From Nemertoderma westbladi (Eukaryota; Animalia; Xenacoelomorpha): DNA of 64,000 nucleotides. Below are positions 9,663 through 46,512 of the stretch, one piece after another; position 1 is the stretch's first letter, and each line of letters starts with the position of its first letter. Made by a program: the position numbers and the translations under genes. The notes under the pieces are model-generated. The model made no database searches and was not told the DNA's origin. It worked only from the letters and a program-made list of their open reading frames with translations. The stretch spans positions 1 through 64,000 of the forward strand of contig JAUCBJ010000941.1 of the NCBI GenBank assembly GCA_032718475.1, given 5' to 3'.

Positions 9663-9867
9663 TTATTCAATGTTGTATACCACAGTCCAAGACTCAAGGT
9701 AGGCTTTAACTAGCATCCACGCTGACACTATGATTGTTATGATAACGAAGATAGTCATAAATAATCTGTCTAAAACCTTGGCGACGAGTTCCCAGTCATT
9801 CTTAATATCAGCTGAGACTTCGTGAGCTTGTGCGATAGATATTAACTGTTTGAGAGATCCTTGTATT
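9663..9867 (-). CDS. CTLD-nAChR gene, exon 13 (last): MA helix, M4 and stop
   Basis: Acceptor ttgttttag; phase 2; reads IQGSLKQLISIAQAHEVSADIKNDWELVAKVLDRLFMTIFVIITIIVSAWMLVKAYLESWTVVYNIE* with the nAChR DWxxVAxVxDR motif. Confidence 0.93.
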
Positions 9868-10186
9868 CTAAAACAATAAATTCAATTAATTATCCCTGGT
9901 TATTTATTTTTTATAGTTACAAGATTATTAATTAGATAAAAAGGAAACAGTCATATTCATACATTTGGCGATTTGGGCAGTGTATAGCTTTATTAAGGGG
10001 GGGTAGTCGAATTTGGGCCAAAACATTGAAATTTTTAAGTATTCTCTGAATTTTATGGTGATTCCTAATCAAAAACAGTTTTCCATATCTTGTATCGTTC
10101 ACGAGATATCATGTGTGAAGTATGTGTTGTGTAAGTCTCTAATGTCGCGACATAATATAAATCGCTATATCGTATTTTCCCGTGAA

Positions 10187-10759
10187 TGATTTTTTAGCGA
10201 ACAACTAAATTATAGTCACTTAATGGATTCTGCAATGAGTACTGTAGAATGTCAAGACTTGCTATATGCACTAAAACAGGGGTTTTGGGATTCAAAAATA
10301 ACCTCTAAAATATCTTAAGGTTGACACAGAAATGGATTACTTACCAAATTTTTACTTCGGTCATTTTTCTTTCGTTGAAACTTTAAATATTATAATTAGT
10401 ATGTGTAGGAAAGCTAGAAGTAACCTATTAATGTAATTTAATTACTGTAACTATGGAATATAGTATATATTTAGGGAGTGGTGTTAGAGCCAATCTCATT
10501 AAGATGATTTAACATTATATGCTCTTATATAGAGTATACTGCAAGTATTCTTTAAGTTGAAAGATTCAATGTTCAACGAAAGAAAAATGATGAAGTAAAA
10601 ATTTACCAAGAAAATCATATTTTGTGTCAACCTTAAGATATTTTAGAGGTTATTTTTGAATCAAAAAACCCCTGTTTTAGTGCATATAGCAAGTCTTGAC
10701 ATTCTACTCATTGCAGAATCCATTAAGTGACTATAATTTAGTTGTTCGCTAAAGAATCA
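10187..10759. mobile_element. MITE/foldback element with ~190-bp inverted arms
   Basis: 10187-10379 is a near-perfect reverse complement of 10573-10759 (e.g. TAGCGAACAACTAAATTATAGTCACTTAATGGATTCTGCAATGAGTA vs TACTCATTGCAGAATCCATTAAGTGACTATAATTTAGTTGTTCGCTA). Confidence 0.88.
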
Positions 10760-10988
10760 AAGCGCGATATTTCTGTCTCGCACTAAATCGCATTTTCTGG
10801 GAAACAACATTTTACCCGATCAGGGATTTTAAAAATCCTATTTCTAATTCTGAGAAGGTAGTTATGATTCATTTTGAAGATAATTCATGTGAGAACTATT
10901 TGAATATTTTTATTTATGTTTCATTGAAAAGTTTTCATGCTATGATACTTTGAATGAGAAATGGACTATATTTCTATCAATAGGCCTA

Positions 10989-12143
10989 TGTAAAGGCTTT
11001 TGCGTAATTAGCCGGTTATTTTCCCCGTAAAGTACTCTGTAGTTGGTTTACCAGGCATAAAAGGCCGTGTCCTTACTGTATTGTTGTTTTAGAGGACATA
11101 AAAGTAATTTCTTCTGTATGTGTACTTTAGCGGACATAATCCGCAATTTTATGACCCAATAAGCCGGATCCTCTTGAAACAGTGTAGCTACCATGACGAC
11201 GGCTAACAGCTGATATTGCCACGTAGAACATCTCTTTGTTCTTTGTTCTCTCTTTGATCGGTCGACCAATCAGAGCGTTTTTTGCCTCTGTGTTGGAGAT
11301 TTTATATAGAAACTAGGGAAGTGAGTCAGTATGTGATTTTTCCACAGCCTACAACACCGGCGTGGAACCTCCGTGTTTCAGTCTTTAGCATCAACATTAG
11401 TAGGCTTAATTATAGAACGTATATCCGTTATCTATCCTATCCTATCCTTAATATCTCACATAATCATTCATAACTTAACATTACTGCTTTGCTGTCGGTT
11501 ATTCATTATATTTGTTGATGAAATATTATATTTGGAATACTGATAAACAATCAGACACCCCAATCTTCTTGATATACTAAAGGTTAGAGAGACCGGATAC
11601 ATATAACGATTGCGACTTACATTAAGTGGTTTGAAGTGAATCTAATGCTATTTTATAGGCCCTACACGTATTGTCTGTTGTTCTCCTTATATGTGACTAA
11701 AATTAGTGAAGGTCGGCAGATTAGTGTGCAGCATTGTGCAGTATTGTGTATGATTGTGATTGATAACGAAGCATCTCCTAAAGAATGCGCCATATACGTG
11801 AATCTATAGCCATCCCGTTGTGTCTGGTTTAAGTCATAACTCTGTTTATATATTTAGAGCGCCACGTCCTAAAGGAACTGTTAATATTTCCCGAAAGTGA
11901 ATAATATTTGTCAGAGATTATATATATTAAGATCAGTCGAATAATACAGTAGGCCTATCCCGCAATACGATTAGGCTTCCGAATCCAGTCTCCCGGGTAT
12001 ATCCAGCGGGTGAATGATCGCGCATAGACTGGTTTCGGCTAATGTAGTGCATCAAATACTTGTCGTAGGCTAAAGACTATCTATTATCTAGAAGACATCC
12101 TAATTTGGCAGGTTAAACTGCTAAAGGTCTGAAAGCGCGAACA
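10989..12143 (+). repeat. 5' LTR
   Basis: TGTAAAGGC...GCGCGAACA; 8 substitutions vs the 3' LTR by manual comparison (11100, 11119, 11156, 11667, 11686, 11775, 11881, 12059). Confidence 0.97.
11266..11330 (+). promoter_or_regulatory. Putative LTR Pol II promoter (CCAAT, TATA, Inr)
   Basis: CCAAT at 11266, TATATAGAAA at 11303, TCAGT initiator at 11326-11330 about 25 nt after TATA; duplicated in the 3' LTR. Confidence 0.55.
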
Positions 12144-12154
12144 ATAACGGATAT
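12144..12154 (+). other. Non-canonical primer-binding position, complementary to LTR 11421-11431
   Basis: ATAACGGATAT follows the LTR directly with no TGG; it is the exact reverse complement of ATATCCGTTAT at 11421-11431. Confidence 0.6.
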
Positions 12155-12476
12155 CAAGTTCGGATTGCAGGGTAGGCAATAAATACAGTTTAATATTGTT
12201 CTGGTAAGAACAATAACGGATATAGCTTCTGTATTGCAGTAGGCAATAAAGCTGAAGTACCGGCAACCGGTACCCAGTAGGCCTGACTACCTAACCACCC
12301 GGACCGGTACCTACCGGTACCTGGTACAGGTATAGCAGTATTATTCGATTTGATAATTATATACCGGTAGGCCTTAATATTGAATCAGGGAGGGCCCGCC
12401 CTGGTTTTTTATTAAGATTTTACTTATTTCTGTCAAGTTTTATTTATTTGTAGGCCAATATTGAGCAAGAGCATCT

Positions 12477-12980
12477 GTCTGATAAAGTGCTAGTTAGGAA
12501 CGTAGGGGCTTCAAGTGCTGTGAGGTAAACCCCCTTTGAAAGAATAAGTCGTACTACTAGGTTAGAACGCATACTAACTAATCATTTCGGAGTCTGCATA
12601 TACTGTAGTTTATTTAGGCTTGATAGTAGTCTGCCAGCGTTTGGTCTGTACTTTGTTTGTGTAGTCTATACGGGTAGCGTAATATTTCTTACTTAGATAA
12701 TTTGAGGGCTGGATTTTGTCTGGCTGTTGTTAGGTCTTGAGAGATTTCGGTGTGTGTAGAGTGTATGTCCGATAAAGTGCCAGTTGGGAACGTAGGGGCT
12801 TCCAGTGCTGTGAGGTAAACCCCCTCTGAAAGAATAAGTCATACTACTAGGTTAGAACGCATACTAACTAACCATTTCGGAGTCTGCATATACCGTAGTT
12901 TGTTTGGGCTTGATAGTAGTCTGTCAGTATTTGGTCTGCATTTTGTTTAAGTAGTCTGTACGCGTAGCGTAATATTTATT
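12477..12980. repeat. 290-bp-period tandem duplication in the long 5' leader of the BEL element
   Basis: GATAAAGTGC...AACGTAGGGGCTTC...GGTAAACCCCCT...GGAGTCTGCATATAC at 12481 and 12771. Confidence 0.9.
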
Positions 12981-14317
12981 ATTCAGAGTTTATGCGATTA
13001 TTCGCAACATTCATATCCCCAAGTTTATTCCTACAGTAATTGTGCTTGTTATACATACCGTTACAGTTAAACTAACCCCGGTACTACATCAGGGCTGCTC
13101 GGCGTAGGTAAAGACTGGAGATTTTATGCTTTGGTCACTCCAGCAGATACCGTGGTTCTTTTAGCTGTTCAAGTATTTTTAACTACTGATTATTTGTTGT
13201 ATAAGTACTTGTACCTAATTTAGGGTTTGGTGTACAGTGCTTTCCGAAGGTGATTAGTGTGTAGGCAGTATATTTGTGTTGTAAAGTGGTTAATAGGCAC
13301 GTTGGTTCTGGTAGACCGCGGTAATTAACTTCTGGGTAGGAACACTCCGTGATACATAACGTAGTACTTATAGCGCCACGGCTATAAGTCGTCAGACGGT
13401 GGTATTTTCCTATCTGGACAACGCAGTATATTTACTACTACTTATTATTTTCAAATACCGTAGTACTCTGTCCGTTGTAATAACCAGATATTCTAACCCT
13501 TTGTTAGGCTGGTTAGTAGACTTCTTGTAAAATTACCCTAAAAATTCGTACTAGTAAATTTTTGTGTTTATTTAGAGATTGTAATCTCACCCCGAATTGT
13601 ACGTAATTTGTAGTATTAAGTAACTTAGGTAAATTAGAATTATTTGTTTTAGTGTCCAACAAGTAGCACTCCACTGAGAGCGCACAGCTTCTGTGTAGTG
13701 ACTCCCCCCAGAAATAATAACATTTATTTCAAATATTGACAAAAACCCATTTTAACGGGTATATATATTATAAATCAACTTAAATGATTTATAAAATAGT
13801 AGGCCTGCCATACAACAATTAGGTCTCAATATCAGTTGGACTACTGCTTAAATAACGGTAATAAAGTAAGTTAAAGTAACCAAGTAACCCTTAAAATTCA
13901 GAAATTCAATTATTCTAAAATAATTGACATACCGGTATTTACAATAGGCCTATTATATTTAATTCTATAAATTTTAGGCTGAAATTATACCGGTATTCTG
14001 TAATTAATTCTAGTTAATAATTATACTTATATATACTATAAGTGTAAACTGCATACCGGTATTCACGATAGGCCTATTATATATTTATATATACTTGTGC
14101 TGAAAGTACATACCAGTATTCTGTGACAAATCTAGTCTGTGACAATACTTATATATATATATACTATAAGCATACCGGTATTCTAACATATTATATATAT
14201 ATTACGCCATACTGAGTAGCAGTATCAGTAATTAATTACTAGGCTAACAGTGATACTGAATTACTAGGCTTGCTTAAACTGTAATATAGCAGTAGGCATT
14301 CAACTGTACAAACCAAC

Positions 14318-17300
14318 ATGTCTGACACAAAGCAAAACCTGTCAGACAGTCTCCTAGATACAACCATATGTGACCCAGACAGGAGTGTGGAACGTGTAGG
14401 ACCGAAGTTCAACTCACCTCCTACTGTAAGAAAGATCATCCCTCCTGTAGTAATATCAGACCCTAGGCTAGTCCAACATCGTAGGTCTATCATAGGCACT
14501 CGAGCTCAGGTCAAGTGGGACCAAGAAGCAGCGGAACAGCAACAACCCGCGAGCCAAGAACTTATTTCTCAACGGCCCGACAGCTCCAGTAGTGAGGATA
14601 CTGTAGAGCTGACACCCGAGCGCGGAGCAAAGATGACGGATGCGGTTTATTCGGATCCCCTTCTCATCCTTCCTGCAGCCGTACTCACTAGGTTATTGAT
14701 TGCGGTGGAAGAACACCAGATCGATTGGGCGAGAAATAAGCGATAGATAAGCTAAAGATAGTTATGCGGGATACACAAGGGAAGAACTGAAGTCTATTGT
14801 CGAGTCGCAATGGAACTTCCCCGGACCCGGACTCCCGTTTGATTTATCAGAAGCTGCCTGGGAAGACATACACAGGATGGGAGTAACCAAGGAAACCATC
14901 GATCCAGCTGTTTGGAAGAGGTCCTCAGCCGGATACGCACAGGGATTCTTCAGCTCTATGGAGCGATTAAAAGAACAACTGTTTCAACAACCCCAAGGAC
15001 CTCAAGAGCAGGGACATCTGCTTTATCAAGTTAGAGAAAGAATTCTACGAATCAGGCTAATCTTATCGGCCTTTGAGGAGGCTTCTAAAAGAAGACAAGA
15101 CACGTCGTTGCAAGTTGCCGTAAAGACTTGGTTTCAACGGGTGAGTCTCCAGGTTCAAGGAACGGCTCAGTGGAAAGTTCAACTGGATGAGCGCTCAACC
15201 CATGGAGAATCAACAGACGCTACTTTTTCCCAAGTGGAAAGTGAAGCGACGGCAGAGAAACCGCATAAGAGGGATGCCATTGACATCTATCTGTCAGACT
15301 ATCAACGTTTTTTAGGTGATGAAGAGTTGAGGAGAAGGCTAGATGGACTTAGCCCTAATAGTGAAGGAACCCAGCGTGTATTGGACGCCATCGATGTGGA
15401 TATGAGAGCTGCGAACCAAGCTAAATTTGATGAACAACTCCGCATCACTAGAGTCCAAGAAGAACAAGTGAAGAAAAAACGTATAGAAGACAGAAAGGCA
15501 GCGGCAGTGGCAGCAGCAGTGGCAGCTGCAGAAGCAGAAAGAAAAGCGGCAGTAGCAGCGGCAGAGGCAGAGGCAGAAAGAAAAGCGGCAGCGGCAGAAG
15601 CGGAAAGAAAGGCGGCAGTGGCAGCGGCAGAAGCGGAAAGAAAGGCGGCAGTGGCAGCGGCCGAAGCGGAAAGAGAAGCGGCAGAGGCAGTGGCAGAAGC
15701 AGAACGGAGAGCGGCTGAAGAAACCACCCAATTAGAATTGGAAAACATTCAGGAGAATCAAGACTGCATAAATAAACAGTTAACAGCTAGTAATATGCAG
15801 ATGATGAATCGATCTACTCCCAAAAGACAGGGATATACATCATCTGAGGAAGGCGATACCACCGATACTGAAGGCAAAGGAAATAGATCTCGTCTAAGCA
15901 GACATAGAAGAACATCCCACCGTCAGAAATTGCCTGATTTGCCTCCAGCTGTTAGAAGGCAACTAAATAACACAAACTTAGGTAGTACAGAACCCACAGA
16001 CCAAATAATTAAAATAGAAAGACTCCCTACTATAGTAGATGAGCCTGAAATAATTCGGCCTGTTCCCGAAGCCACCCTTTCGGTGGTATAGACACCTGAA
16101 CTCCCTGAACCTACCTCTAAATTCCCTCTGCACAGCACTAAGCTACCTGTGCCCAGCAGAACAGCCCATGAGACAATCTATGTCCTGGACTCCGAGCGAA
16201 ATATTAATGATTTGTCGCCCGTTGTCCCTCGTCCGCCCGCTACAACGTTGGCGGCTCCCGCTTCGGCGGTCGAGTGGGTGGATGAGAGACGACGGGGGAT
16301 GGATCTCCTGCTCGGGCAGATGCAGGAGACTGTTCAGCAATTCAAGGGCACAGTAAGGGAAAGTAGGTTAGAGTTGCAAGAAGTGCAGCAAAGTATCGCT
16401 CTAGAACGCGATAAATTAGTAAATACACAAAAGGGTATACCACCACCCCCTGTAACAATGTGTCAACCTGTTAGGTCTGAAGTATCTCATGCGCAAGGTG
16501 TGGAGCCTACACGCATATATACTGCTAGCGAAGTAGAAACTCCTATAGTGAACCCTATTAAGGGTAATTATAGACCTGTTGATAATGATATTCCCTATAG
16601 ACCTGATCATAATCCGAGAAATTTATATACCGATAACTCGATATTAAATAACACGATGGCCCAAGAAAGTTTTACGCGTCAAATGGCTAGAACCGAAGCC
16701 CGGCAAGCGGTAAAGGTGGGAGAGATCGTCAAGTTCAATGGAGATGAGATGAAATGGTTACCTTTTAATGAATATTATAAAGATAACATACAGAACTCTG
16801 TACTATCTAACGGAGAGAAACTTAGATTCCTCATCGAGTGCTTGGAAGGACCTCCCAAGTTAATGGCGTTAAAGTTTATTAGACATCCAGATGGATTAAG
16901 ACAAGTTTGGGATACACTAAACATCAGGTATGGTAATAGGACTAACATAGCTAGGTATTTGTATGCGAAATTAATGGCGCCCCGAAAGTTTCTTAGCAGC
17001 GGGATTATAGAGTTTTCCGACGAGATTCAGGAAATCTGTAGACAACTAGATTGGTTAGGTAAGTCTCATGAATACCAGAATTCTATGGTTGTAGGAGCCT
17101 TAGCATCAACTTTGCCAAAGGGTGGAGTAGGTACTCGCTGGGACCAAAGAGTTCTATATTTGATGGACCAACAACATAGAGATCCAACCATGACGGACCT
17201 TCTGTCATTCTTAAACAGAGAGGTAAGATTACAACTCCTAAAACAGTCTCGAGAGAAGACACCGGAAAATAAGGTAAGTGAGAAACCCGTTTCTAGGAGA

Positions 17301-19281
17301 AAGGTAACACCAGTGTGTTATACAGACGACGGCGAAAGCCAGGCCTCTCAAGAGGAGAACAACGGGAAAGACACCGAAAGATCTTACTATGTCAACAAAG
17401 CGCCTAAGGACGTAAGTAAATTTAAGTCTCGAACTAGTGACAGGAGAGAACAGGTAACAAAAACTCCTCCTACGTCTCCTAAGAGAATTCATGGAAGAAA
17501 GCCTGAGGAAAGAACGAGTGTGCACAACACTACCCAAGGTAAAGTAAGTATCATCAAACCAAAATGTGCATTGTGCGACGGGCCCCACCATTTAAGTGTG
17601 TGTGAAGAATTCTTAAAGAAATCCCTAAAAGATAGACGCGATGTCATGTGGGATAAGCGGTTGTGTTATAATTGTCTCAGACAAGGACACCAACGGCAAA
17701 CCTGTTACTCCGACGCAAGGTGTGCTAAGTGTGGCGCGAAACATCATATCTTATTGCATACCGAATTCGAAAGAAACAGCCCGAGTCAGGTAAGTGAGTC
17801 CGAACTACATGTCCAATTCAGTGATGTGAACGACACTGATCACAGTACTGAGATGGAAGGATTCTACACGGATGAATTCTCCGACGAAAACGAATCCTGT
17901 TATCTAATAAACACCGCAGTGTATCGAGCACTTACGTATGAGACTGAAACCGATAGTGAGCTCCCCCTAACTATTCCTGACCGACAACCATCTTGGAAAG
18001 CGCCAACTTCCAATGTAGGAATCCGGGAATTTCCCGTAGTGCAGTTGAGAGTCCATGGGTTAAAAAAGAGCTATATAGTGAACGCCCTCCTTGACTCCGG
18101 CAGCACAGGAACATTCATCGACAAAGAACTAGCCGAAGACATCTTTGCTGGACAACCCAAGTTCCGAACTAAGTTGAACCTTTCAGGAATTATGCAGGTT
18201 TGGAAATCTACAGTAGCTACAGACTACTATGTAGGCACGTTGTCCACCCCCCAGGATGAACTAGGAGAACACAGTATAAGGTCAGTAAAAATGGTGGCGA
18301 TAAAGAACTTCGCTACCAGCCAAGTGGAACCTTATAACTGAGATGAAGACGATTTCACCCAGCAGCATGAGATACCTAGATTCAACACCGACTACCCAGG
18401 GGTACAGATACTCATCGGCCAAAATGCGCATGAGGCGCTTGAGACATTAGAGACACGGCCTGCTCGACCGCAACCATTGCAAACCTATGCGGGAAGAACA
18501 AGAGTAGGTTGGTACTTCACTGGACCTTCCTGTAGGACACTCATGGAAAGGCTACCCAAAGATCAGGTCCATCAAGTGAGTGAATGGGAAGAAGACATCA
18601 GTGAGGGAGAGACAACCACAACTGAGGGAACACCATACTCCTCAGATAATGACGATATTAACTCTAATGTAGATCAATGGAGACATTGCCTTGGGACGAT
18701 TAATCCAGCCGACATCGCTTCCAGAGGAGCAACTCCTCAAGAACTGATAGATACTCCAGACTGGTTAGGTGGACCCGACTTCCTAAGTAAAGAAGAGGAT
18801 GAATGGCCTCCTCATCTCACCATGGCTGAGATTAGACAAGCCAAGGGAGCGGAGAAAGTCAAACCTAAAACCCGGACGAGTAAATCAAAGTTATTTAAAC
18901 CCGCGATTGATCTGTCTGTACTACACGTTTCAGTGGACGATGCTGTGAATCTAAACTCCCCCGCCACAAATAACTCTGACTGTGGAAATCAGAGAAAGAG
19001 ACTGGAAATCTGGAACACCAGACGTCTCGCAGGGACTCTCACCTCTCCTGCAGGGAGCGATAAACCACTATAGCTCCTGGAATCGGCTTTGTAAGGCCGT
19101 CACAAATCTATCGTCACTATTCCAGGACGAAGAGGAAACCTGGAATTGTATTCGAAACACAACAACTCAATCGCCCAGTTGGTCGTTTGTGTTTACTGGA
19201 AAGAGACCGAGAACTGTCCGGAAACTATGGAAGGCAAGATACTCTTCCCACGACCACCTCCCTAATCCAACAAACATCTAG
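14318..19281 (+). pseudogene. Disrupted BEL/Pao gag-pro plus RNase H remnant; RT and integrase deleted
   Basis: ORFs 14877, 16149 and 18477 share one frame, split by single stops (TAG 16089, TGA 18339). Motifs: DUF1759-like KFNGDEMKWLPF...EKLRFLIECLEG...LNIRYG; knuckles CALCDGPHHLSVC, CYNCLRQGHQRQTC, CAKCGAKHHILLH; protease LLDSGS...ILIG...TRVGW; RNase H C-terminus WRHCLGTINPADIASRG...WLGGPDFL...WP; post-RH YSSWNRL. The link to ORF 14318 needs a frameshift near 14745 (inference). Confidence 0.92.
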
Positions 19282-20436
19282 GGACTCCCCAACGTAACAG
19301 CGTCTGGAGTGGGTGTGTGACTATATTATTTTATATTCGTTTTTTATTATTCTTATATTTAGGTATGTATTATTATGTAATTTTATAATAATCGTTTTCT
19401 TTAATTTTATTTAGTAGAATGTTATTTTAGTGGTTATTTAGTAGATTAGTGCAAAATATATTCGTGTTTATTACTTAATTACTTATATTATATATTTAGT
19501 GCAACGGCGAGAAATAATTCTTTTTCTCTTTCCTTACTGTCCGTATCATATTATAAATGCGTGACTACAGTAAGATGAAATATCCGTACTTATTAAAGTA
19601 CAAAATAAAGCTCCTACTATATTCAAGTATTATTGGTAAGTAGAGTATTAGGAATGCAAAATTCAGATCCTCGTGTCTCAGCTAAACCAAGCTCTGGGTA
19701 GACCTTGGAAACGACTTGCCTCTTCTCACTGACATTGCTTCTTGCAATATTGCTCTCATACCGTATATTAAATAATACATATAGTAGCGTGATGTCCTTT
19801 TAACAGTAGCGTATAACGCAAAATAAATCTGTTAAACCCTTTGACCATCTGCAATTCTAGTCGATTAAGATATCGTGGCACCCACCGATATACTTGAAAG
19901 ACAAAATTATAGAATCAGTGGTTAACGTCCCCAGACAAGTTCTGGAATAAACTGGTGCCCATCCTAAATATTAATTATTAATATTTACAAAATCTGTCAA
20001 ATACCAGATCCTTTAAAATTCTAGTCGATTAAGATATCGTAGCACTTACCGATACTCTTAAAAGGACAAAATTCCTAGAATCAAGGATCCCAGTCCCCAG
20101 ACACGTTCTGGAATAAAATTGTGTCTATTTTAATATTAAATAATAAAATTTACGGGAATAAATTTAAATTCATATATTTCAATGAATTTAATAAATTGTC
20201 ATTTTATACAATTTATAACATTCCCAAAATTCCATTAATTAATAGATCATGGGAGCGGATATTCACTCTATTAAGTGTATTTGTGTGCGAGAATCTCCAA
20301 TATATAGTCAATAGCCGATAAAATTCAGAAAATCATATATAGAGAGGATATTGACAATTAAAGAATTACTATTAAATAGCATCCCAGATCTGTATGCATG
20401 AGAATTACCCTAATTCTACCGCTAGCTTTCCATAAT

Positions 20437-20450
20437 GTCACCATGGCAAC
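20437..20450. promoter_or_regulatory. RFX X-box-like motif upstream of the extra 3' ORF
   Basis: GTCACCATGGCAAC fits the X-box consensus GTHNYYATRRNAAC; function untested. Confidence 0.35.
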
Positions 20451-20938
20451 AACCACGCTAGAATTAGAAGTGAGTTAAAGAACAATAGAAGGCTTGCCCC
20501 ATTGAATAGCATAGGGAATAAATAGCGCACTGCTAGTATCCAAGGATACATAATAAATACAGTGACATTCTGGAAGGTACTGACTAACGGACAAATGGCC
20601 CGAATGTGTGCAGTTTATGGCAGTTGTGTTGAATTTGTGCGTTTGTAGGTGAATGTTACTACTAAGGTGTGTTTACAGTAGCGAGTCGCAATTGTGAAAG
20701 TAGCCCTAACTCTCCAGAAAGAACCTGAAGTATATCTAAGCCTTTGGGACGGACGGTGGAGTGACTTGTGCTGGTTGTTGTGGTCGTTGTGCAGCTACGA
20801 CGTTGGCGATAGGCACCTCGACGAAAGTACACCAGCGCTGAGGATCTCGCACTGTCCGGGTGCAGAGAGGGGTAGGCAGCGACGCCCGCTAGCCTAAATA
20901 TAAACTCATTATAATATTGATAAACTCATATAGCACAT

Positions 20939-22450
20939 ATGACTGAGTTGATAGAAGATGATCTTGGTATCAGGGAGCGATATACTCTACCTTTACAAGC
21001 GTTTGTTGATAGCTTGATACGCGGCGACGCTGGTCCAACTACTACGGAGGACGATGGTCGTTATATCGAACCGCCAATGTCCCAGGAACAACTTACGCGT
21101 GAATTGGACTATCGAAAATTCACTGCTCGCTATACGCATCGTAATGGTACGCATATGGACTTCTTAACTACTGGTCATCCTATCGACCTACACGATACGA
21201 ACGATATAGACACCAAAAGGGAAATGGTTTTATTTAAATATCATACCCAACGGAAGCGGAACGATAAACTGAGACTCGAACACGAAAATTCTATTCGAAA
21301 CCGACTCGAAAGTGCAGATGTTGAAGAGCCGGATAAACGCAGCGACTTCACCAAATACTGGGAATTCTTGAGAGAAACCTATCTCGATATTACCAGTCAA
21401 CAGAATCTAGAAACTTGATATCCTCAAGGTATACATCATGACCGCAGGGTAGAACTCAAACGGCTCTATTCCACTAGGATGTATCTTACCGCCGATCGAC
21501 CGCTACCTGTTGTACCGGATAGCTTCGAACAGATGGAGGAATATTGTAAGCTGGAGAAAGATCACTCGCGTTGACGTGCGTCTTTGGTATTATTGCGAGG
21601 AATGCCCTAGACCCAACCAACAAATGGAAAGACCTAAACATCCGCGGAGACGTTGCACTAAACACGGTTTTACTCGCTATACTGGCGGGAGTTTCGAGTG
21701 AAATTTGTTTGACGTATCACCTACGCTCGTTCGACTCAGACGATCCTTAAATAAACCAATGATCAGAGTTTCGGAATACTCGATCAGACCTCATCATTCC
21801 CTAGTGAGACCTCAGACTCTTGATCCTATTAGTATGACGGATCCTCCCGAGCTGTACTCACTACTCAAAGATCTAGTGTTACCTGAACAATTAGTCGGTG
21901 GCACCCCGGTGGTGGGCTTCCTAGATATTAGCCCATCCTACCTAGTCGGATTGGGACGCGGACATTTAATATCGCCGTTTAACCCTTACCATCGTCCCGG
22001 CTTAACACGATATAACCTGTCACCAGAGTGGCGGAGAGCGTTGTACCAAATGAGTTAGACGCTATTCTACACAGATCAGAAAAGGAACTTACGCTTGTTC
22101 AGATAAACGTAAATTGCATTAGCAGGTCCAAGTGGTAAACAAAGTAACTTTATCTCAGTTCGATCGGGAAATCCAGAATCTCTAAGAAGTTATCGAACTT
22201 GGACGACCCTATTCTCTGCGAGAGTTTTTGGATGAACGTATCCAGCTACGAGCGGAGGAAAATCAGCTCGAGGAGAAGCATATCGAAACGGCGGATACCC
22301 CGACCATAATCCTACATCTTCTGATGCAATCATATTGCACCCTTCACCCAGGAGTTATGGCCCTCCTAGTAAAGTGGCTCCCCCCAAAGAGAAAAGGACT
22401 CTTGTTAGCCTCAAAAACTGCGTAAACGCCGTCCTCGTAAGAAAGACTAA
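20939..22450 (+). pseudogene. Degraded additional ORF of unknown function in the env position of the BEL element
   Basis: Coding-like block with ORF pieces 20939-21418, 21510-21701 and 21705-22058 (the last two in one frame across a TGA). Contains CEEC...H...C..H and, in one frame, a basic end KLRKRRPRKKD*. No signal peptide or TM helix seen. Confidence 0.6.
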
Positions 22451-22520
22451 CTGTTTAGAGTATTTTTATATTTTAGAAACTGTGATTTGTTATATTTTAT
22501 AGACTTAAATCCCATTTTCT

Positions 22521-22528
22521 GGGAGCGG
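22521..22528 (+). other. Polypurine tract
   Basis: GGGAGCGG directly before the TGT of the 3' LTR. Confidence 0.7.
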
Positions 22529-23683
22529 TGTAAAGGCTTTTGCGTAATTAGCCGGTTATTTTCCCCGTAAAGTACTCTGTAGTTGGTTTACCAGGCATAA
22601 AAGGCCGTGTCCTTACTGTATTGTTGTTTTAGAGGACATGAAAGTAATTTCTTCTGTAGGTGTACTTTAGCGGACATAATCCGCAATTTTATGACGCAAT
22701 AAGCCGGATCCTCTTGAAACAGTGTAGCTACCATGACGACGGCTAACAGCTGATATTGCCACGTAGAACATCTCTTTGTTCTTTGTTCTCTCTTTGATCG
22801 GTCGACCAATCAGAGCGTTTTTTGCCTCTGTGTTGGAGATTTTATATAGAAACTAGGGAAGTGAGTCAGTATGTGATTTTTCCACAGCCTACAACACCGG
22901 CGTGGAACCTCCGTGTTTCAGTCTTTAGCATCAACATTAGTAGGCTTAATTATAGAACGTATATCCGTTATCTATCCTATCCTATCCTTAATATCTCACA
23001 TAATCATTCATAACTTAACATTACTGCTTTGCTGTCGGTTATTCATTATATTTGTTGATGAAATATTATATTTGGAATACTGATAAACAATCAGACACCC
23101 CAATCTTCTTGATATACTAAAGGTTAGAGAGACCGGATACATATAACGATTGCGACTTACATTAAGTGGTTTGAAGTGAATCTAATGCTATTTTATAGGC
23201 CCTACATGTATTGTCTGTTGTTCTCTTTATATGTGACTAAAATTAGTGAAGGTCGGCAGATTAGTGTGCAGCATTGTGCAGTATTGTGTATGATTGTGAT
23301 TGATAACGAAGCATATCCTAAAGAATGCGCCATATACGTGAATCTATAGCCATCCCGTTGTGTCTGGTTTAAGTCATAACTCTGTTTATATATTTAGAGC
23401 GCCACGTCCTAAAGGAACTGGTAATATTTCCCGAAAGTGAATAATATTTGTCAGAGATTATATATATTAAGATCAGTCGAATAATACAGTAGGCCTATCC
23501 CGCAATACGATTAGGCTTCCGAATCCAGTCTCCCGGGTATATCCAGCGGGTGAATGATCGCGCATAGACTGGTTTCGGCTAATGTAGTGCATCAAATATT
23601 TGTCGTAGGCTAAAGACTATCTATTATCTAGAAGACATCCTAATTTGGCAGGTTAAACTGCTAAAGGTCTGAAAGCGCGAACA
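22529..23683 (+). repeat. 3' LTR
   Basis: Copy of 10989-12143, followed by TSD GCCTA. Confidence 0.97.
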
Positions 23684-24166: not shown

Positions 24167-24375
24167 TCTGCTAAGATCTTGTTTGACGGTAAGTCTTCAA
24201 TCTCACGTAAACTCCCGGGTATATCCAAAAATTGCGGGCTGTTTCGGTGGTTGTTTTTGCGGCCTCCTTGCTCTGGGCTGGTGTCCGCCCGCATTCTCAT
24301 ACTAAAGCTATTATTACGCGCAGATCTCTTTGCCTCTCTGGCAAACGATTCTCTATGGGTGCCCGCAACAGTAGT
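24167..24375 (-). CDS. CTLD-nAChR gene, exon 12: M3-M4 intracellular loop
   Basis: tctttcag acceptor and GTAAGC donor; open frame TTVAGTHRESFAREAKRSARNNSFSMR...LPSNKILA(E); phase 0 to 2 joins exons 11 and 13 exactly. Confidence 0.88.
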
Positions 24376-28372: not shown

Positions 28373-28569
28373 AGCGTAGTTATCTTCCTCGTCTCCCTCT
28401 ATAACGGCTTCCTGAACACAGAAGATTTGCCCAAGGAAGTGGAGGACAAAACGTTTCAGCCATAATGGGACCGGAGTGTCGTACTGGCCTCTATAGTGAA
28501 TGTCGAGAACCACAACAGTGAGGACAGTAGACATGGTAATAAGTACAATTACTGCGAAATAGTACTGAG
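28373..28569 (-). CDS. CTLD-nAChR gene, exon 11: M3 and MX helix
   Basis: atttcag / GTAAGT; (A)QYYFAVIVLITMSTVLTVVVLDIHYRGQYDTPVPLWLKRFVLHFLGQIFCV...; phase 1 to 0. Confidence 0.95.
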
Positions 28570-28786: not shown

Positions 28787-28883
28787 CCAAATATGGAACA
28801 GATTCGGATGTGGAAGGCATCTTATCAGCAACCATAAGCAGAAACACAGTTAGTGCTAACAGCACCGTTAGTTGCATTCCGAT
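28787..28883 (-). CDS. CTLD-nAChR gene, exon 10: pore-lining M2 and M2-M3 linker
   Basis: actgtag / GTTAGT; IGMQLTVLLALTVFLLMVADKMPSTSESVPYL; phase 0 to 1. Confidence 0.95.
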
Positions 28884-30345: not shown

Positions 30346-30436
30346 GCTGTCCCTATCGAAAATTGGAACCGTTCTAGTTGTAAGCGATGCTTTGTATTTA
30401 TAATTTAAATTAAATACGAATAGGCCTAATACTAAC

Positions 30437-30613
30437 CTTCTCCCCACTGTCTGCTGGTAGATAGAATCCGATAAGAGCAAGGAATGTGATGAGGATACAA
30501 GGGAGGATGATGTTGAAGAAATAATAGGTAGACCGGCGCCGGATCTGCATAACGAAGTTCACCTCGGGATAAGGATTAACGCAACAGTCGTAGTTCCGAT
30601 CTATAAGACTCGA
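30437..30613 (-). CDS. CTLD-nAChR gene, exon 9: loop C (YxCC), M1 and GEK
   Basis: tttttttag / GTTAGT; [59 protein letters not shown]. Vicinal cysteines define an alpha-type subunit. Confidence 0.96.
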
Positions 30614-30621
30614 CTAAAAAA

Positions 30622-35854: not shown

Positions 35855-36113
35855 ATTGAAAAATTCAAGATCCCACTCCCCATTTGGCACGTAGAGTTCT
35901 GTATCTCCCTCTAACACCTCGAAATCAATACCAGTTTTATCGAAATCCCACGAGGTCATTGTAATAGCACAGTGTTGTACATCGAATGGGAAGTGGAGTG
36001 TGTTCACTTTACATGAAGTCCTGATGACATCCGGTCGCATCCATGATAGTGTTCCGTCGTACGTCGCCCAGATTCGAGTTGGCCAAATTTCTGGAATCTC
36101 GAAAGGCGCTGCC
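35855..36113 (-). CDS. CTLD-nAChR gene, exon 8: loop E, Cys-loop, loop B, loop F
   Basis: tactcag / GTAAGT; AAPFEIPEIWPTRIWATYDGTLSWMRPDVIRTSCKVNTLHFPFDVQHCAITMTSWDFD...NGEWDLEFFN, with the C-x13-C Cys-loop and FPFD. Confidence 0.96.
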
Positions 36114-36762: not shown

Positions 36763-36872
36763 GAGTTAATAATGATAATATCAGGCCTCCAAACATTGTT
36801 AGGCGGAAGAAGTACGGCAGTTATTCCACCATGTTTCAAAGGGTTCCATGATAAATATGGATCTCTCCATTT
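36763..36872 (-). CDS. CTLD-nAChR gene, exon 7 (110 bp): loop A
   Basis: atatgtag / GTAAGT; KWRDPYLSWNPLKHGGITAVLLPPNNVWRPDIIIINS; 110 bp is the conserved size of this nAChR exon. Confidence 0.95.
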
Positions 36873-41193: not shown

Positions 41194-41238
41194 CTGTCTA
41201 AAGAAAACAACTGTTGTAATAATTTGTTGAGCTTCGTC
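41194..41238 (-). CDS. CTLD-nAChR gene, exon 6 (45 bp): loop D
   Basis: aattacag / GTTCGT; DEAQQIITTVVFFRQ, matching the conserved 45-bp DEKNQVLTTNIWLQM exon. Confidence 0.92.
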
Positions 41239-41619: not shown

Positions 41620-41765
41620 CATTTCCAGAACTCTCCTCAGGGCCAACTGTATTTGAACCAATACCGGCCCCGTACCGGTTATTGTGGGTTTCATAAGGTA
41701 TGAGTAAGTAGACTCATCCAACAGCATGTTGGTTAATCTTGTATACGCGGCCAGTTTAGATAAAC
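41620..41765 (-). CDS. CTLD-nAChR gene, exon 5: N-terminal helix and beta1 of the ligand-binding domain
   Basis: ttgattag / GTAAGT; (G)LSKLAAYTRLTNMLLDESTYSYLMKPTITGTGPVLVQIQLALRRVLEM; phase 1 to 0. Confidence 0.9.
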
Positions 41766-41821
41766 CTAATCAAATCAATTGCGAATAGCGAATAAATAGG
41801 GCCTAAGGCAATAAATTGTGG

Positions 41822-41903
41822 TGCGAGGCAGCCACGTACTAATCGAAGCGGTGGCCTCACGATGCGAGGCAGCCACGTACTAATCGAAGCGCTGGCCTCA
41901 CGA
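41822..41903. repeat. 41-bp direct duplication
   Basis: TGCGAGGCAGCCACGTACTAATCGAAGCG(G/C)TGGCCTCACGA twice. Confidence 0.9.
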
Positions 41904-42189
41904 TAAAAAAGCAGCTATTTTACCTGCCGAAAACGAACTGATTAATTTTCCTATCGAGCTTCTGCCATCAAGGTTAATTACACATCAAGAAAAGGAAATT
42001 TACCTATTTTTCGTGAAGGACAAGGCACAATCATAATCTTAAAATGTAATTCATTGACTTCCCCCCTCTAGAAATCACTGCATCTCAAAGTCTAAGTGAA
42101 ATCTACAGTGTTTACGAGTTCCGCGTCTCCCAGTACCGACCATTGATCGAACGGGCCGATTTCCATTTCGGCTCGGCTCGGCTCTACAT

Positions 42190-42600
42190 TATCCCGCCAT
42201 CCGGGTTGCCGCATTTCTCACGACTCGTCTCCATATGGGCAGCTATCCATGAGGTAGAATGCGCGGCTAGATGCACGGCTCGCTTCAGGTATAGTTTACG
42301 ATAAGATATAATCAATACTTTGTTGGCAGGAGTACGGTCTGATAAAGCTGTCCCGTGTAGTGTCACTATTGTTCCACTCCCATCGGGACAAAAGGTTAAG
42401 TCTTGAATTCTTAAATACTAAAGTTTCATGCCCGGTACTATGTACCTCACGTTGTCTTGGATGTCTGTTTGATTGTTACGATAAGTTCCATTGGGGAGTA
42501 AGACCCGCCACCTGCGCTCAAGTTCGACCGCGAATGTCACCAGGAGAGATAGGTTCCAGGAGAAATAGGCCTCGTAACAGAAAGGATCAGGTTTGTAAAG
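42190..42600 (-). mobile_element. Possible degraded DIRS-type tyrosine recombinase fragment in intron 4
   Basis: GC-rich island with SWNLSLLV, LIISYRK and AHSTSW, resembling the DIRS YR motifs SWDLSLVL, LFVSY and AHSTR..SWA; heavily eroded. Confidence 0.4.
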
Positions 42601-43179
42601 TTGCATGACACAGAGGAAGCGTTCACGCAACCAAACTAACAAACGAAAGTTAACAGGTTAGTAAAGGACCAATTACCAAAGGATCTAAATGACGCGTTAC
42701 CATTTAAAGCTGCAGTGGGACCTAATGCGAAAGGTAGGTAGGTTATTTTTAGTAAAAATGGATTAAATTTTTATAATTTCTAGGGAAATGTGATGATTAC
42801 ATGTAATGGATGCAAAATTAATAGTAGTTATTATTTTAAGTGGAAATACAATTAAACATAAATAGTGGAGAATAAACTATTCCAAAATAAATATATTCGA
42901 CTAATTTTCTGATTTGAAATGGAACAATAAATAATTCTGTTTACGAGTTCCTGGTTACGAATCTGAGTGACCAGTTACATATTGTTGTAGACAAAATACG
43001 TTTTAAATATTTATTTTCTCCTAAATCTTTTCATTTTCCTACATTTTAGAACTTTCTAAAATAATAATTTTGTTTATTAATATATAATTTCAATCATGAA
43101 GTGAAAAATTAGCGCCACAATATGATGGTTATATACACTTATTCAGTTAAAATTATAATTATATTTTTAATTGACAAAC

Positions 43180-43321
43180 CTTTATATTTGCAGACGTATG
43201 AATTATTTGTGTCGTCAGAACAATCTGAGTATCCCATTATTACTGGCGGGTTTTGAGATATATCTAAATCCTGTTGACATCCTTCGAATTGGCCAAGTCT
43301 ACTCCAAGAAAACTTTGAATC
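43180..43321 (-). CDS. CTLD-nAChR gene, exon 4: C-terminal part of the C-type lectin domain
   Basis: tttttctag / AAG|GTTTGT; DSKFSWSRLGQFEGCQQDLDISQNPPVIMGYSDCSDDTNNSYVCKYK with three CTLD cysteines and terminal YVCK; phase 0 to 1. Confidence 0.88.
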
Positions 43322-43728
43322 CTAGAAAAATATAAAATAATTGTAAACCCAGCGACAGTGTTGAGAGTTTGATAAACCATGTTGCAACGCAGACGAGAAC
43401 ACCGCAAAGATAAAACTCGGAAAAAATGTTATAATCCCATACATTTCTAAAGGGGTCATTTTTTCCGTCAGGACAAAAAGGGTAACCTTAAGGGGGGTGG
43501 GGGGTGGTGGGGTGGTGGTGGTATACCACTAAAACTAAACTAAAGGTAAACTTAATTAAAAGTAAACTAATTTATTTCTTGTATTTTGTTGATTATTTAT
43601 AAGTTGCAACTTAAAAACAAAAGAAGGAAAATATTTAAAAAATTAAAAAACATTTTGAGGACGACATTGCTTACTCATATGGTTCGATTGTAATAATATA
43701 CAGGTACTAATATTCCCCTGATACTTAC

Positions 43729-43811
43729 CATTGTGGTTCCATCAGACCAAGTGTTTCTGTTTTTTAGAATATTCACCCAAATCTTTGATAATCCTTTGCT
43801 CTCCAATAATT
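43729..43811 (-). CDS. CTLD-nAChR gene, exon 3: CTLD middle
   Basis: tttttttag / GTAAGT; (E)LLESKGLSKIWVNILKNRNTWSDGTTM, with WIGL-equivalent WVNI and WSDGT; phase 1 to 0. Confidence 0.88.
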
Positions 43812-44059
43812 CTAAAAAAATAACGAAAATTTTAAATTTGTAAGGTGCGGGTGCGGTTGGGTATCATAACATAACAGAACTTAACGCAAACCTCTTGAAC
43901 TAATTAAAAACTATAATGGAATGGGATGTGGGCTTTCCAGCTGTATAATAATTTGTAAGTATATACAATTAATTTACTAAATGTACTCTTATAAATTTAT
44001 TATAATAGAAAATAATTAATTACCATGAATGAACACGCTTAAAATGCCATCTTTTACAT

Positions 44060-44668
44060 ACTTGTGTGTAACGTAGCACTTTACAGTGTGATGATCCGAG
44101 TGGCTTTGTTACACGAACGAACGTTAGTGAGTGAGTGAAAATAAAGCCACGAGGATCTGAACACTGTAAAAGTACTTTGCAACAAGTATGTATGTAGTTT
44201 TATTCCAAAATTATAACATTACGAAATGATTGTATATATATTATAAGTGATAGAAACTGCACAAATTAAATTAGTTGCTGTATAAATAAATGTAAAAATG
44301 ACATAAATTATGTTATAAATAAGTTAGCTTATACTTTATTTGGAGCCATGTTATAATGATATAGCTAGGCCCTACTGGTTATTAATAGCTATACCGCCTA
44401 CCGGTAGGTATTGCAGTAGCCCTATCTGGCTGTCAGGCAAATTTCCACCTATTGTTTACGTGGTAACCCATATCGACATTAAGTAATGTCCCCTTAGTAG
44501 ACATTACTTAACGCCGCCAATGGTTTCCACGTAAACAATAACACCAATACAATACTAATTGGACAGGCCAATACAATGCTGCAATGTCCTCTAAAGTTGT
44601 AAAGTGCTAAATAACAACTCGCTGTTAATACTAACGGCGATGAGTAATGTTACAATTTTGGAATAAAA
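44060..44668. mobile_element. Adjacent and nested inverted-repeat element(s) in intron 2
   Basis: Hairpin 44060-44186 (CACTTTACAGTGT...GTGGCTTT / AAAGCCAC...ACACTGTAAAAGT); outer pair TTTTATTCCAAAATT 44198 / AATTTTGGAATAAAA 44654; inner pair ATTGTTTACGTGG 44451 / CCACGTAAACAAT 44527. Confidence 0.7.
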
Positions 44669-44735
44669 TATATTTATTAATAATAAGATAACAAAAACAG
44701 ACAGGACAAAAACAATGAACGTAGGACTGGCCCAC

Positions 44736-44894
44736 CTTTAATAAAGTCAGCCTCCCCTTGCTCTTCATTATTGATAGTAAGCAAACTCGCATCGTAAAGT
44801 TCACAAGCCGATGCGGCCCCTGTGTATGTTAAGGCGGATTCAAATAGTTTGTAACAGTAGCCCTCGTAAAGTTGCCAACCCTCCAGACATTCAA
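44736..44894 (-). CDS. CTLD-nAChR gene, exon 2: N-terminal part of a long-form CTLD
   Basis: tacctgcag / AAG|GTGGGC; ECLEGWQLYEGYCYKLFESALTYTGAASACELYDASLLTINNEEQGEADFIK, the classic C-x2-GW-x6-CY...A...C...L.TI...E...FI pattern; phase 1 to 1. Confidence 0.92.
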
Positions 44895-46132
44895 CTGCAG
44901 GTAAACAATTATTGTTAACAATAAATATAAGTACTAGTCTTAAAAAATAATGATTTATTCGGCCATTAAGCCAGGGATTACAAACAAAATTAGTCTCACG
45001 ACTAATTTCCAGCCAAAATGTATCAGGTACTCATTTAGCTACCATTTAAAGATGTAATGCAGAGATGCGGCGGCTGCGACCTGGCTGGTTCCTTTATAGC
45101 ATTCGTGCCGAAACGAAAACTACCCAGCCCCCCACCCCCCCCCCCATGCGGGGACCGAACTCAGAAGATATTCGAACCGATTAAAATCCTAAATTTATTT
45201 TCGATAGTGTAGTTTAGTTTAATAACGTAGGAGAAACAAAGCTAGATACATGATGCGTTAATTTTACAATCTTGATACGCATGGCAGATGTTATTTTGTG
45301 ATTTCCAATCACAACTAATAGAATACGCACTGTTATAAGACTTAAAGTTCCCTGAAAATTATAAGAGATTTTGAAGATATCCGATAATTTGTATATTCCG
45401 TGCCGAGTTCAAGTTTGAGTGCGAATATTGTAGCGGGGCATAAAGTGGGTTCATACACTGATCTTATCCTGACCTTATGATATCATACAATTCAACCATT
45501 CGTTAAACTATACAATAGTTGGAAAAAGGTTTGTAAATTAATTTGAAATTCGGTCGGTATCAGATAGGGTATATTTCGAAAACTATTCTCAAAACTTTGT
45601 GGTCGCAAACGAGCCCCCCCCCTCACCCCCCGGGGGGGGGGGGGGGGGGGGGGGGGGGAATTGCGCGCATTCCACACATCCGAAAATTCAGTGTTGCTTC
45701 TGGAGCCTGTACTCTGTACTCTGTAGTCTCACAAAGCTGTACTCTGTGAGTTATAAAGGCATATAAAAGGATAAATAAACAGTTCTGCCCTGCCCTTCAT
45801 GCCATACCCACCATTAAAGCGGAAAATTTGAATTCATCAAAGAACAAACAAGTTTCTGAATGTTGTTTTTCTAAATAGCTATTGTATATGAACGAAATTC
45901 AAAACAGATCACTCGCACTCAATAATTAATTTGAATAATTAATTAATATTGACTTAAATTAAATATAAAATACTCAAGAACATTATTCCTACATCATTAT
46001 ATTTTTCTTAAAATTGCATTGCATAAAATTTACAGATAGGGGGGGGGGGGGGGGGGGGGGACTTTCGACGCAAGCAAAATTAATCCCTCTCCAGGGCAAT
46101 TCTAAGCAAATATTAATTGTTTACTCCCAAAA

Positions 46133-46296
46133 GTAAAGGTGTAACCTGTTCTATTGACTTTAGTTTATTGCTTTGGTTAGAATAATGTGCCAGGTGCCAC
46201 TGTAACCTGCTCCTTTCCCAAAATTGATAATTTAAAATTGAGGCAGGACAATAATTCGCCGAGATTAGATTTGCTACCAGTTACCCTCCTGTCTCA
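46133..46296 (+). repeat. Dispersed repeat, second copy at about 54350-54485
   Basis: GTAACCTGTTCTATTG...TTAGTTTATTG...CTGTAACCTGCTCCTTTCCC...ATTGAGGC is shared by both sites. Confidence 0.8.
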
Positions 46297-46403
46297 AAAA
46301 TTAAGACGCAATTTTCCTAATGTTATTGTGAAAAGTGTAGGTTTTTGAATAATATTGAATAATATAAGCTATTCAGTATTTTTGTGTAATAAGTTTCACT
46401 TAC

Positions 46404-46512
46404 CTAATGGTCTGTTATCTATTGCCTCAAACTTTTCAAGCTCCTCATTAGTATACTCACAAACAGCAATAAGTGCTGATGAAAACAACAAAATATATCC
46501 AAAAAATAACAT
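46404..46512 (-). CDS. CTLD-nAChR gene, exon 1: signal peptide
   Basis: MLFFGYILLFSSALIAVCEYTNEELEKFEAIDNRPL, then AG|GTAAGT (phase 1). An alternative phase-1 donor GTGAGT lies at 46460. Start codon is tentative because the frame stays open upstream. Confidence 0.75.

Follow-up and report, generated by a model that had tools for sequence, protein, structure and literature searches.

Genomic sequence from Nemertoderma westbladi places exons of a C-type lectin-like domain (CTLD) directly upstream of those of a nicotinic acetylcholine receptor (nAChR) subunit, which raises the question of whether the two are made as one protein or belong to separate transcripts. We examined this locus in a window of 64 kb, the whole stretch of DNA that was analyzed.

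Gene model

The gene lies on the minus strand, running in 13 exons from 46512 to 9663, and the joined exons (1,938 nt) translate to 645 amino acids and a stop. The first-pass annotation had described 13 GT-AG exons forming a stop-free 645-aa reading frame, with a signal peptide, a six-cysteine CTLD, and a Cys-loop subunit in succession. This description held up throughout: all 12 introns are GT-AG with compatible phases, the joined frame contains no internal stop, and the three parts are recognizable from domain matches and cysteine spacing. Exon 1 (46404..46512; 109 nt coding, ending in phase 1) encodes the signal peptide and an acidic spacer, amino acids 1 to 36. Intron lengths range from 217 to 14,299 nt, and intron 4 (41766..43179; 1,414 nt), the fusion junction between the CTLD and channel exons, is close to the median. 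No second nAChR and no duplicated CTLD exon was found within the 64-kb window.

Intron 12 houses a BEL/Pao-type LTR retroelement (10989..23683, plus strand), antisense to the channel and outside the protein, with LTRs that are 99.3% identical. Satellites fill introns 8 and 9, and exon 9 is flanked by two satellite arrays 300 nt apart.

The C-type lectin-like domain

Exons 2 to 4 would together encode a long-form CTLD with six cysteines, the evidence being clear for exon 2 and weak for exon 4. Exon 2 (44736..44894; 159 nt) supplies the N-terminal half with C39, C50, and C67. A PDB search with this exon gave 132 matches at E ≤ 10, with single-domain matches down to E 1.8e-8, led by DEC-205, the PLA2 receptor, the mannose receptor, and snake C-type lectin-like chains, with aggrecan also matched. 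Lectin_C was the assignment for 21 of 30 Atlas matches (top score, 0.95), and a Pfam scan of the single exon gave a weak Lectin_C match (E 0.073) below the cut-off. Exon 3 (43729..43811; 83 nt) forms the middle of the domain and has a divergent motif of the WIGL type. Exon 4 (43180..43321; 142 nt, ending in phase 1) supplies the C-terminal half with C132, C151, and C161. It gave no PDB matches, and its Atlas search ranked CTLD clusters third and sixth with a recognition value of 2027, below the 2300 mark, so that exon 4 is assigned to the CTLD mainly because of its cysteine spacing.

The six-cysteine pattern of the long-form CTLD is shared with the mannose receptor family and the lecticans, and the exon sizes of 159/83/142 nt resemble those of the lectican CTLD exons, 159/83/145. 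Unlike in those proteins, the CTLD is here attached to a channel and lacks the canonical calcium-site motifs. Calcium site 2 of sugar-binding C-type lectins is marked by EPN/QPD and WND motifs, and neither is present in amino acids 37 to 164. With these canonical calcium and sugar motifs absent, the domain would not be classed as a calcium-dependent sugar-binding C-type lectin. The EPN motif of C-type lectins is also described in PMC514892.

The channel: class, agonist pocket, and pore

The remaining exons encode a Neur_chan_LBD region followed by four transmembrane helices (Neur_chan_memb), which identifies a Cys-loop pentameric ligand-gated ion channel (pLGIC). Exon 5 (41620..41765; 146 nt, starting in phase 1) carries the initial helix and strands of the ligand-binding domain, exon 6 (41194..41238; 45 nt) loop D, exon 7 (36763..36872; 110 nt) loop A, and exon 8 (35855..36113; 259 nt) the Cys-loop, C299 to C313 with P307, and loop B. 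Loop C, the pre-M1 Arg, M1, and the Glu at -1' fall in exon 9 (30437..30613; 177 nt), M2 in exon 10 (28787..28883; 97 nt), M3 and the beginning of the intracellular loop in exon 11 (28373..28569; 197 nt), and the MA helix, M4, and stop in exon 13 (9663..9867; 205 nt coding). Exon 12 (24167..24375; 209 nt) continues the intracellular loop; it was accepted from its splice sites and phase, has no family match, and is the least secure exon of the model. The Pfam scan was run exon by exon on 12 exons, exon 6 being too short. Neur_chan_LBD was matched by exons 7 (E 2.4e-9) and 8 (E 1.7e-13) and weakly, at its start, by exon 5 (E 0.27); Neur_chan_memb was matched by exons 9, 10, 11, and 13 (E 3e-7 to 1e-4); exons 1, 3, 4, and 12 had no Pfam match when scanned singly.

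The Cys-loop has 13 residues with the conserved Pro, and C299, P307, C313, the loop-A Trp (W256), and the pre-M1 Arg (R377) are each invariant in 53 of 53 homologs. The nearest solved relatives are alpha7 and beta2, and the vicinal cysteines C361-C362 of loop C, the mark of an alpha subunit, align with those of alpha7. Pocket residues that have been kept are Trp320 in loop B and Y359, C361-C362, and Y366 in loop C. The full aromatic agonist box of loops A, B, C, and D is not present: loop A has Ile263 where 30 of 34 vicinal-Cys homologs have Tyr, and loop D has Phe225 where 27 of the 34 have Trp. None of these 34 comparable homologs has lost both. Given this incomplete box, we use alpha-type as a name for the subunit and do not assume gating by acetylcholine; with its loop-A Tyr lost, the subunit could alternatively be an accessory one without agonist binding. 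The M2 region is of the cation type, with Glu at -1', Leu at 9', a hydrophobic 13' residue (Val), Asp at 20', and no Pro at -2', and from Glu -1', Leu 9', Val 13', and Asp 20' the channel is predicted to be cation selective.

The pocket changes, together with the young LTR element in intron 12 and the satellites in introns 8 and 9, might point to a gene that has recently been disabled or is decaying. We regard this as very unlikely, since 645 codons run without a stop or frameshift, the splice sites are all canonical, and the structural residues are retained.

Relatives of the channel

A search of 1.84 billion proteins with exon 8 gave 2,101 matches at E ≤ 0.001, of which the best 150 were examined. 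These 150 included no close ortholog, a local profile search found a CTLD in none of them, and a Pfam scan of 34 longer matches found no CTLD. The best whole-channel match among the 150 showed 34% identity over 453 aa (E 4e-93). Named invertebrate matches came from Antedon, Ptychodera, Saccoglossus, Lingula, Acropora, Mya, and Branchiostoma ("alpha-10-like"). The gene shares with invertebrate alpha7/alpha9/alpha10-like subunits the Cys-loop, the loop-C vicinal cysteines, four transmembrane helices, and a cation-type M2; it differs from them in the added CTLD and in the change of both the loop-A Tyr and the loop-D Trp. A quick tree was built from the model and the 58 of the 150 matches that covered most of the channel, and it placed the model in an open group of 38 rows, among nAChR-like rows, on a branch of length 1.28.

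Wider searches for the fused architecture were also negative. Word-indexed protein searches confirmed 0 of 13 candidates for exon 8 against longer proteins and 0 of 1 for exon 2, and two metagenome scans gave 0 of 103 and 0 of 595 confirmed pattern matches. A profile of nine homologs and seven channel exons, run over proteins of 906 to 2,585 aa, retained 4 of 6,793 candidates, all with PF02931/PF02932 only.

The junction between exons 4 and 5

The mature binding domain starts with exon 5, which opens in phase 1, so an upstream signal-peptide exon is needed. Of 452 candidates running from an ATG to a phase-1 donor ahead of exon 5, three passed the thresholds, and exon 1 was the best of them, with a hydrophobicity of 2.52, a donor score of 6.6, and an in-frame stop upstream; the remaining pair falls in a single AT-rich stretch at 53.4 kb. 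Two scans found no signal-peptide exon in intron 4, in agreement with the earlier claim that none separates the CTLD from the channel, and a candidate scan found none that was convincing in 46513 to 64000. An open stretch of intron 4 starting at 42606 was considered as a first exon for the channel and rejected for its late hydrophobic run and poor donor. An in-phase exon-1 donor at 46461 was likewise rejected as the primary site, with a score of 0.0 against 6.6.

These results bear on a reading in which exons 1 to 4 are a small secreted lectin gene beside an nAChR gene, or nested in its first intron, with the channel's own first exon elsewhere. Annotated nAChR fusions with unrelated neighbors do exist (the matches include one with PLA2, one with a retroelement protease, and one with DUF4419), some of them probably model errors, and a first exon may lie past the end of the window, 17.5 kb upstream of exon 1. 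Against two genes stand the outcome of the signal-peptide scans and the coincidence needed for the two parts to share a strand, agree in phase, and have a donor placed on the domain boundary. The 1.4-kb intron 4 is also small for a 3' UTR, a promoter, and a first exon, which counts for fusion, and we consider two genes improbable.

The exon-4 donor lies three codons past the last CTLD cysteine and ranks 19th among 287 GT sites in 41000 to 46403. Its score of 1.60, under the scoring matrix used, is the lowest of the 12, with the next lowest at 1.64 and 1.79 and the donors serving exons 10 and 12 scoring similarly. Exon 4 has a G+C fraction of 0.37 and the 45 nt that follow it 0.16, a drop also seen after most other exons. 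Read-through into intron 4 meets a clean stop after 13 codons, followed 60 and 125 nt later by poly(A)-like AATAAA signals at 43078 and 43015. Exons 1, 2, and 4 all finish in phase 1, so exon skipping stays in frame; splicing of exon 1 to exon 5 would yield a plain receptor, and intron-4 read-through would yield a secreted lectin. The locus might thus make several products, the main mRNAs encoding a plain nAChR and/or a secreted CTLD with the fusion minor or absent, as the in-frame phases, the weakest donor, and the read-through stop with its AATAAA signals would allow. However, the read-through tail at 16% G+C looks like intron, the similarly scoring donors of exons 10 and 12 must be used, and AATAAA is frequent in this AT-rich DNA. 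We think this outcome unlikely, though less so than two genes. The fused reading is the best supported, and on genomic sequence alone the exon 4-to-5 join is probably spliced in vivo.

Comparison with known lectin-channel and N-terminal-domain systems

The first-pass annotation had suggested that this architecture might be undescribed, which stands in a narrow sense only. Polinski et al. reported in 2021 that the American lobster has 66 Cys-loop channels with CLECT, pentaxin, and LDLa domains, called pentaxin-lectin-LGIC or "chimeric neuroimmune" receptors (PMC8221624). According to the accessible parts of that report, these proteins cluster apart from 24 lobster nAChRs, are said to occur solely in lobster and its crustacean relatives, and are expressed in the antennules and brain; a coupling of pattern recognition to gating is proposed, with no function assigned (PMC8221624). 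In them, as in the N. westbladi gene, one chain combines a C-type lectin domain with PF02931 and PF02932. This gene differs, going by those published descriptions, in having one CTLD and a vicinal-Cys nAChR channel. The earlier proviso that an existing family would remove the novelty thus applies by half: the lobster family is described and expressed but, in the parts of the report seen, is not functionally characterized, and it has extra domains and stands apart from nAChRs (PMC8221624). New relative to the first-pass annotation are the missing sugar-binding motifs, the eroded agonist pocket, and exon phases compatible with an isoform without the CTLD. No report that joins a CTLD to a subunit of the nAChR type was found in the literature covered, which took in few subscription journals and was surveyed mostly by title.

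No pentaxin or LDLa Pfam match was found in 110 of 116 minus-strand open stretches of at least 30 aa from 41600 upward, a scan that left out satellite arrays and that short exons could escape. The best matches of the channel are nAChRs, in a comparison whose tree was made without any lobster chimera. Since the gene has a single CTLD, joined to a true alpha-nAChR, the fusion is probably independent of that of the lobster family.

A folded accessory domain before the binding domain is also found in DeCLIC and other prokaryotic pLGICs (PMC12664993; bioRxiv 2025.02.27.640520; PMC549065). Those domains are jelly-roll or periplasmic-binding folds and the channels lack the Cys-loop disulfide, in contrast to this gene. 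The DeCLIC domain is reported there to modulate gating, not to trigger it (PMC12664993), and reviews from 2025 to 2026 still treat N-terminal accessory domains of pentameric channels as a prokaryotic feature.

Proposed origin and function

The CTLD exons are flanked by two phase-1 introns, and such a phase 1-1 cassette is as expected from exon shuffling. The first three introns are common to all vertebrate nAChR genes (PMC6354393). A nicotinic receptor gene likely gained a three-exon lectin cassette by insertion within its first intron, and the product would be a signal peptide, a CTLD, and an alpha-type nicotinic subunit in one frame. A pentamer could then display up to five CTLDs on its apex, about eight residues separating the last CTLD cysteine from the binding domain's first helix. 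The cation pore is predicted to be opened by a small amine at the weakened agonist site, possibly a low-affinity agonist or an amine other than acetylcholine. The CTLD would likely bind protein, not sugar, and serve as a tethered cap that positions the channel or tunes it; it would presumably have a protein partner. As a whole, the best explanation we can offer is that insertion of a lectin cassette gave an amine-gated cation channel its own tethered cap for binding protein, and we hold it tentatively, at slightly less than even confidence.

The same fused protein might instead use the CTLD as its primary sensor, with a microbial, prey, or surface ligand on five caps opening the pore while the agonist site decays. 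The short link between the CTLD and the first helix, the joint loss of two pocket aromatics, and the long branch would fit such a sensor, as would the lobster family, for which the same role is proposed alongside expression in antennules and brain (PMC8221624). But loops B and C keep all their marks, and direct gating by an N-terminal domain is unreported in the pLGIC literature as far as it was accessible. The CTLD also lacks EPN/QPD and WND. A CTLD sensor is in our estimate rather unlikely, as is the fuller version in which this is a second, independent lectin-capped pentameric channel, arisen outside crustaceans on a true alpha-type nicotinic subunit, with the cap replacing a decaying acetylcholine pocket as the sensor and contact with a surface, microbe, or partner protein opening the cation pore directly. 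If that were true, exon skipping would let one gene alternate between a plain and a capped receptor.

The literature yielded a single animal example, the lobster family, whose members add three kinds of domain (PMC8221624), and a single CTLD on a recognizable alpha7/alpha9-like subunit is the simplest version of a lectin-capped channel. Being simple, and expressible with or without the cassette, it makes testable whether a fused recognition domain gates or places an animal Cys-loop channel. If the fusion is borne out, it would represent a convergent recruitment of the lectin fold to the pentameric channel family through exon shuffling.

Gene structure and genomic setting

The coding sequence reads as 13 exons on the minus strand, from 46512 to 9663. 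All 12 introns are GT-AG, and the joined exons (1938 nt) translate to 645 residues plus a stop, with zero internal stops. The first-pass annotation had described such a gene, and its description was accurate; the gene model is real and intact. Hydropathy marks a hydrophobic stretch at the N terminus and four membrane helices, at residues ~379-408, 409-435, 441-468, and 605-637.

The surrounding DNA is animal and repeat-rich. Intron 12 holds a BEL/Pao-type LTR retroelement (10989-23683, plus strand), antisense to the channel, with two 1155-nt LTRs that are 99.3% identical and a 5-bp target-site repeat; it is a recent insertion. Gag (DUF1759) and protease matches lie at 16092-18338 in frames interrupted by stops, and the four open reading frames scanned gave no reverse transcriptase or integrase match. 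An imperfect palindrome of ~700 bp in intron 6 (39850-40535; 78% self-complementary) resembles a miniature inverted-repeat transposon, and smaller inverted repeats lie at 10187-10759, 44450-44540, and 48093-49616. An integrase-core fragment (62801-63236, minus strand; rva_4, E 7.6e-12) is a probable transposon remnant; a faint match to Clr5 lies immediately upstream of it. Long satellite arrays at 1-6323, 29043-30344, 30622-35628, 38087-39211, 49808-53359, and 55087-61093, with units of 29, 12, 31, 55, 22, and 48 bp, occupy roughly one third of the window, and exon 9 (30613-30437) survives in a ~280-nt gap between two of them. With the frame open throughout, a gene in decay is highly improbable.

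Domain identity

In a single-exon Pfam scan of 12 exons, six gave good matches to the two channel domains, exon 5 resembled the binding domain and exon 2 Lectin_C at weak scores, and the remaining four had no family match. The best solved-structure matches of the channel exons were human alpha7 and beta2. Exon 2 (44894-44736) is the first half of a C-type lectin-like domain (CTLD) by PDB search and Atlas; exon 4 (43321-43180) is divergent, with weak Atlas support and no matches in a PDB search. The six cysteines fit the long-form CTLD pattern. This domain lacks the EPN/QPD and WND motifs by which C-type lectins bind sugar with calcium, so it may be called lectin-like in fold but not a lectin. 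The EPN motif also appears in PMC514892.

One gene or two

Exon 5 (41765-41620) opens with the first helix of the binding domain, in phase 1 and without a signal peptide. Farther upstream on the minus strand, 3 of 452 ATG-to-phase-1-donor candidates for a signal-peptide exon exceeded simple thresholds of hydrophobicity and donor score, the latter from an approximate donor matrix. The best was exon 1 (46512-46404), the other two shared one AT-rich stretch near 53.4 kb, and none of the three fell inside intron 4 (41766-43179), which bears out the earlier claim that no other signal-peptide exon separates the CTLD from the channel. Intron 4, at 1414 nt, is close to the gene's median intron; its donor lies three codons past the last CTLD cysteine and ranks 19th among 287 local GT sites, and G+C falls to 16% directly after it. 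Phase-1 introns bound the CTLD exons on both sides, as in a shuffled cassette. In vertebrate nAChR genes, the first intron is in phase 1 and follows the signal peptide. The first three introns are common to all vertebrate nAChR genes (PMC6354393).

Several observations count against a fused transcript. Exon 4 has the poorest donor score in the gene's set of 12, read-through of intron 4 would run 13 codons to a stop that is followed by AATAAA at 60 and 125 nt, a splice from exon 1 to exon 5 would stay in frame, and a first exon of the channel could sit beyond the window. Mixed or alternative isoforms in which the fusion is scarce are conceivable though unlikely, and two separate genes are quite improbable. 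Judged from splice sites and phases, a fused CTLD-channel transcript from one gene is likely.

The flanks of the exon-4 donor (43174-43186) and exon-5 acceptor (41758-41770), both on the minus strand, are alike, and read-through and splicing yield identical next three residues; this is possibly a trace of the intron's origin, or chance.

Relatives

Exon 8 (36113-35855), searched against 1.84 billion protein representatives, gave 2101 matches. Among the best 150 of these, the closest whole-channel match was 34% identical over 453 residues, none carried a CTLD, and none was a close orthologue. Ten of the 150 carry names and are mostly "alpha-10-like" subunits of crinoid, acorn worms, brachiopod, coral, clam, and amphioxus, at an identity too low to indicate the phylum of the host. 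In a quick tree of 58 matches plus the model, the model has a long branch and falls into an open group of alpha7/9/10-like rows. Three word-indexed protein searches and two metagenome scans yielded nothing more. One match from Auanema, P0050 (CAI4228193.1), carries a secreted phospholipase A2 domain (E 3.9e-15) after its signal peptide and ahead of the binding domain; it is either a second N-terminal fusion or a gene-model error.

Ligand pocket and pore

We compared residues across 53 aligned homologues, 34 of them with vicinal cysteines. The binding domain keeps the Cys-loop, loop-B Trp, and loop-C Tyr, Cys-Cys, and Tyr; the pore region keeps the pre-M1 Arg, Glu -1', Leu 9', Val 13', and an acidic 20' residue. 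By these marks the model is an alpha-type subunit with a putative cation pore. Loop A has Ile in place of the Tyr kept in 30 of the 34 vicinal-Cys homologues, and loop D has Phe in place of the Trp kept in 27; one of the two is missing in 11 of the 34, and both in none. Such pocket erosion is common across expanded invertebrate nAChR sets: in the oyster, the principal site is complete in 13 of 33 alpha subunits (PMC6896357), and among five nAChR-like subunits of a sea cucumber, one responded to low and one to high acetylcholine, while three gave no response (PMC10120082). In M2 (28787-28883, minus strand), the model has Gln 4' and Met 3', which some nematode subunits among the matches (P0050) share; alpha7 has Gly and Leu there.

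Described chimeras and possible function

Cephalopod chemotactile receptors are divergent nAChR-like chemosensors. The genome paper of the American lobster (PMC8221624) describes 66 Cys-loop channels that carry CLECT, pentaxin, and LDLa domains and form a cluster separate from the animal's 24 nAChRs. Some of these channels are expressed in brain and antennules, and searches reportedly did not detect the family in Drosophila, many lophotrochozoans, cnidarians, or vertebrates; CTLD-only members may occur in the paper's table S9. The present gene, by contrast, has a vicinal-Cys nAChR channel, and a scan of 110 out of 116 upstream and intronic open stretches gave no pentaxin or LDLa match, so it is probably a fusion independent of the lobster family. 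Elsewhere, a 14-species survey lists 41 nAChR models "with other functional domains"; dynamin and GAIN are the ones it names, and lectin is not among them (PMC6896357, Table 1). Animal architecture is called stereotypic, with extra domains shown at genome level only (PMC549065, PMC4795631); and N-terminal domains are handled as a prokaryotic trait (PMC12664993, bioRxiv 2025.02.27.640520). Passages of PMC13286009 and PMC13228809 mention no such fusion. The earlier suggestion that the architecture might be undescribed stands insofar as the literature searched contained no report of an nAChR-type subunit with a fused CTLD, but not for CTLD-bearing Cys-loop chimeras, which are published for the lobster.

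PMC8221624 already proposes a link from recognition to gating for the lobster chimeras. Here, where the loop-B and loop-C marks of the agonist pocket are kept, a CTLD that gates the channel directly is improbable. We tentatively prefer a cation-channel subunit that would assemble into pentamers and open to a small amine, its affinity reduced or its specificity altered. Up to five CTLDs would stand on the apex of the pentamer, each on a linker some eight residues long, and bind a protein partner, thereby anchoring or tuning the channel. Chimeric Cys-loop receptors of this general kind are described already, uncharacterised, so the gene is not categorically new; what it probably carries is a CTLD-nAChR fusion.
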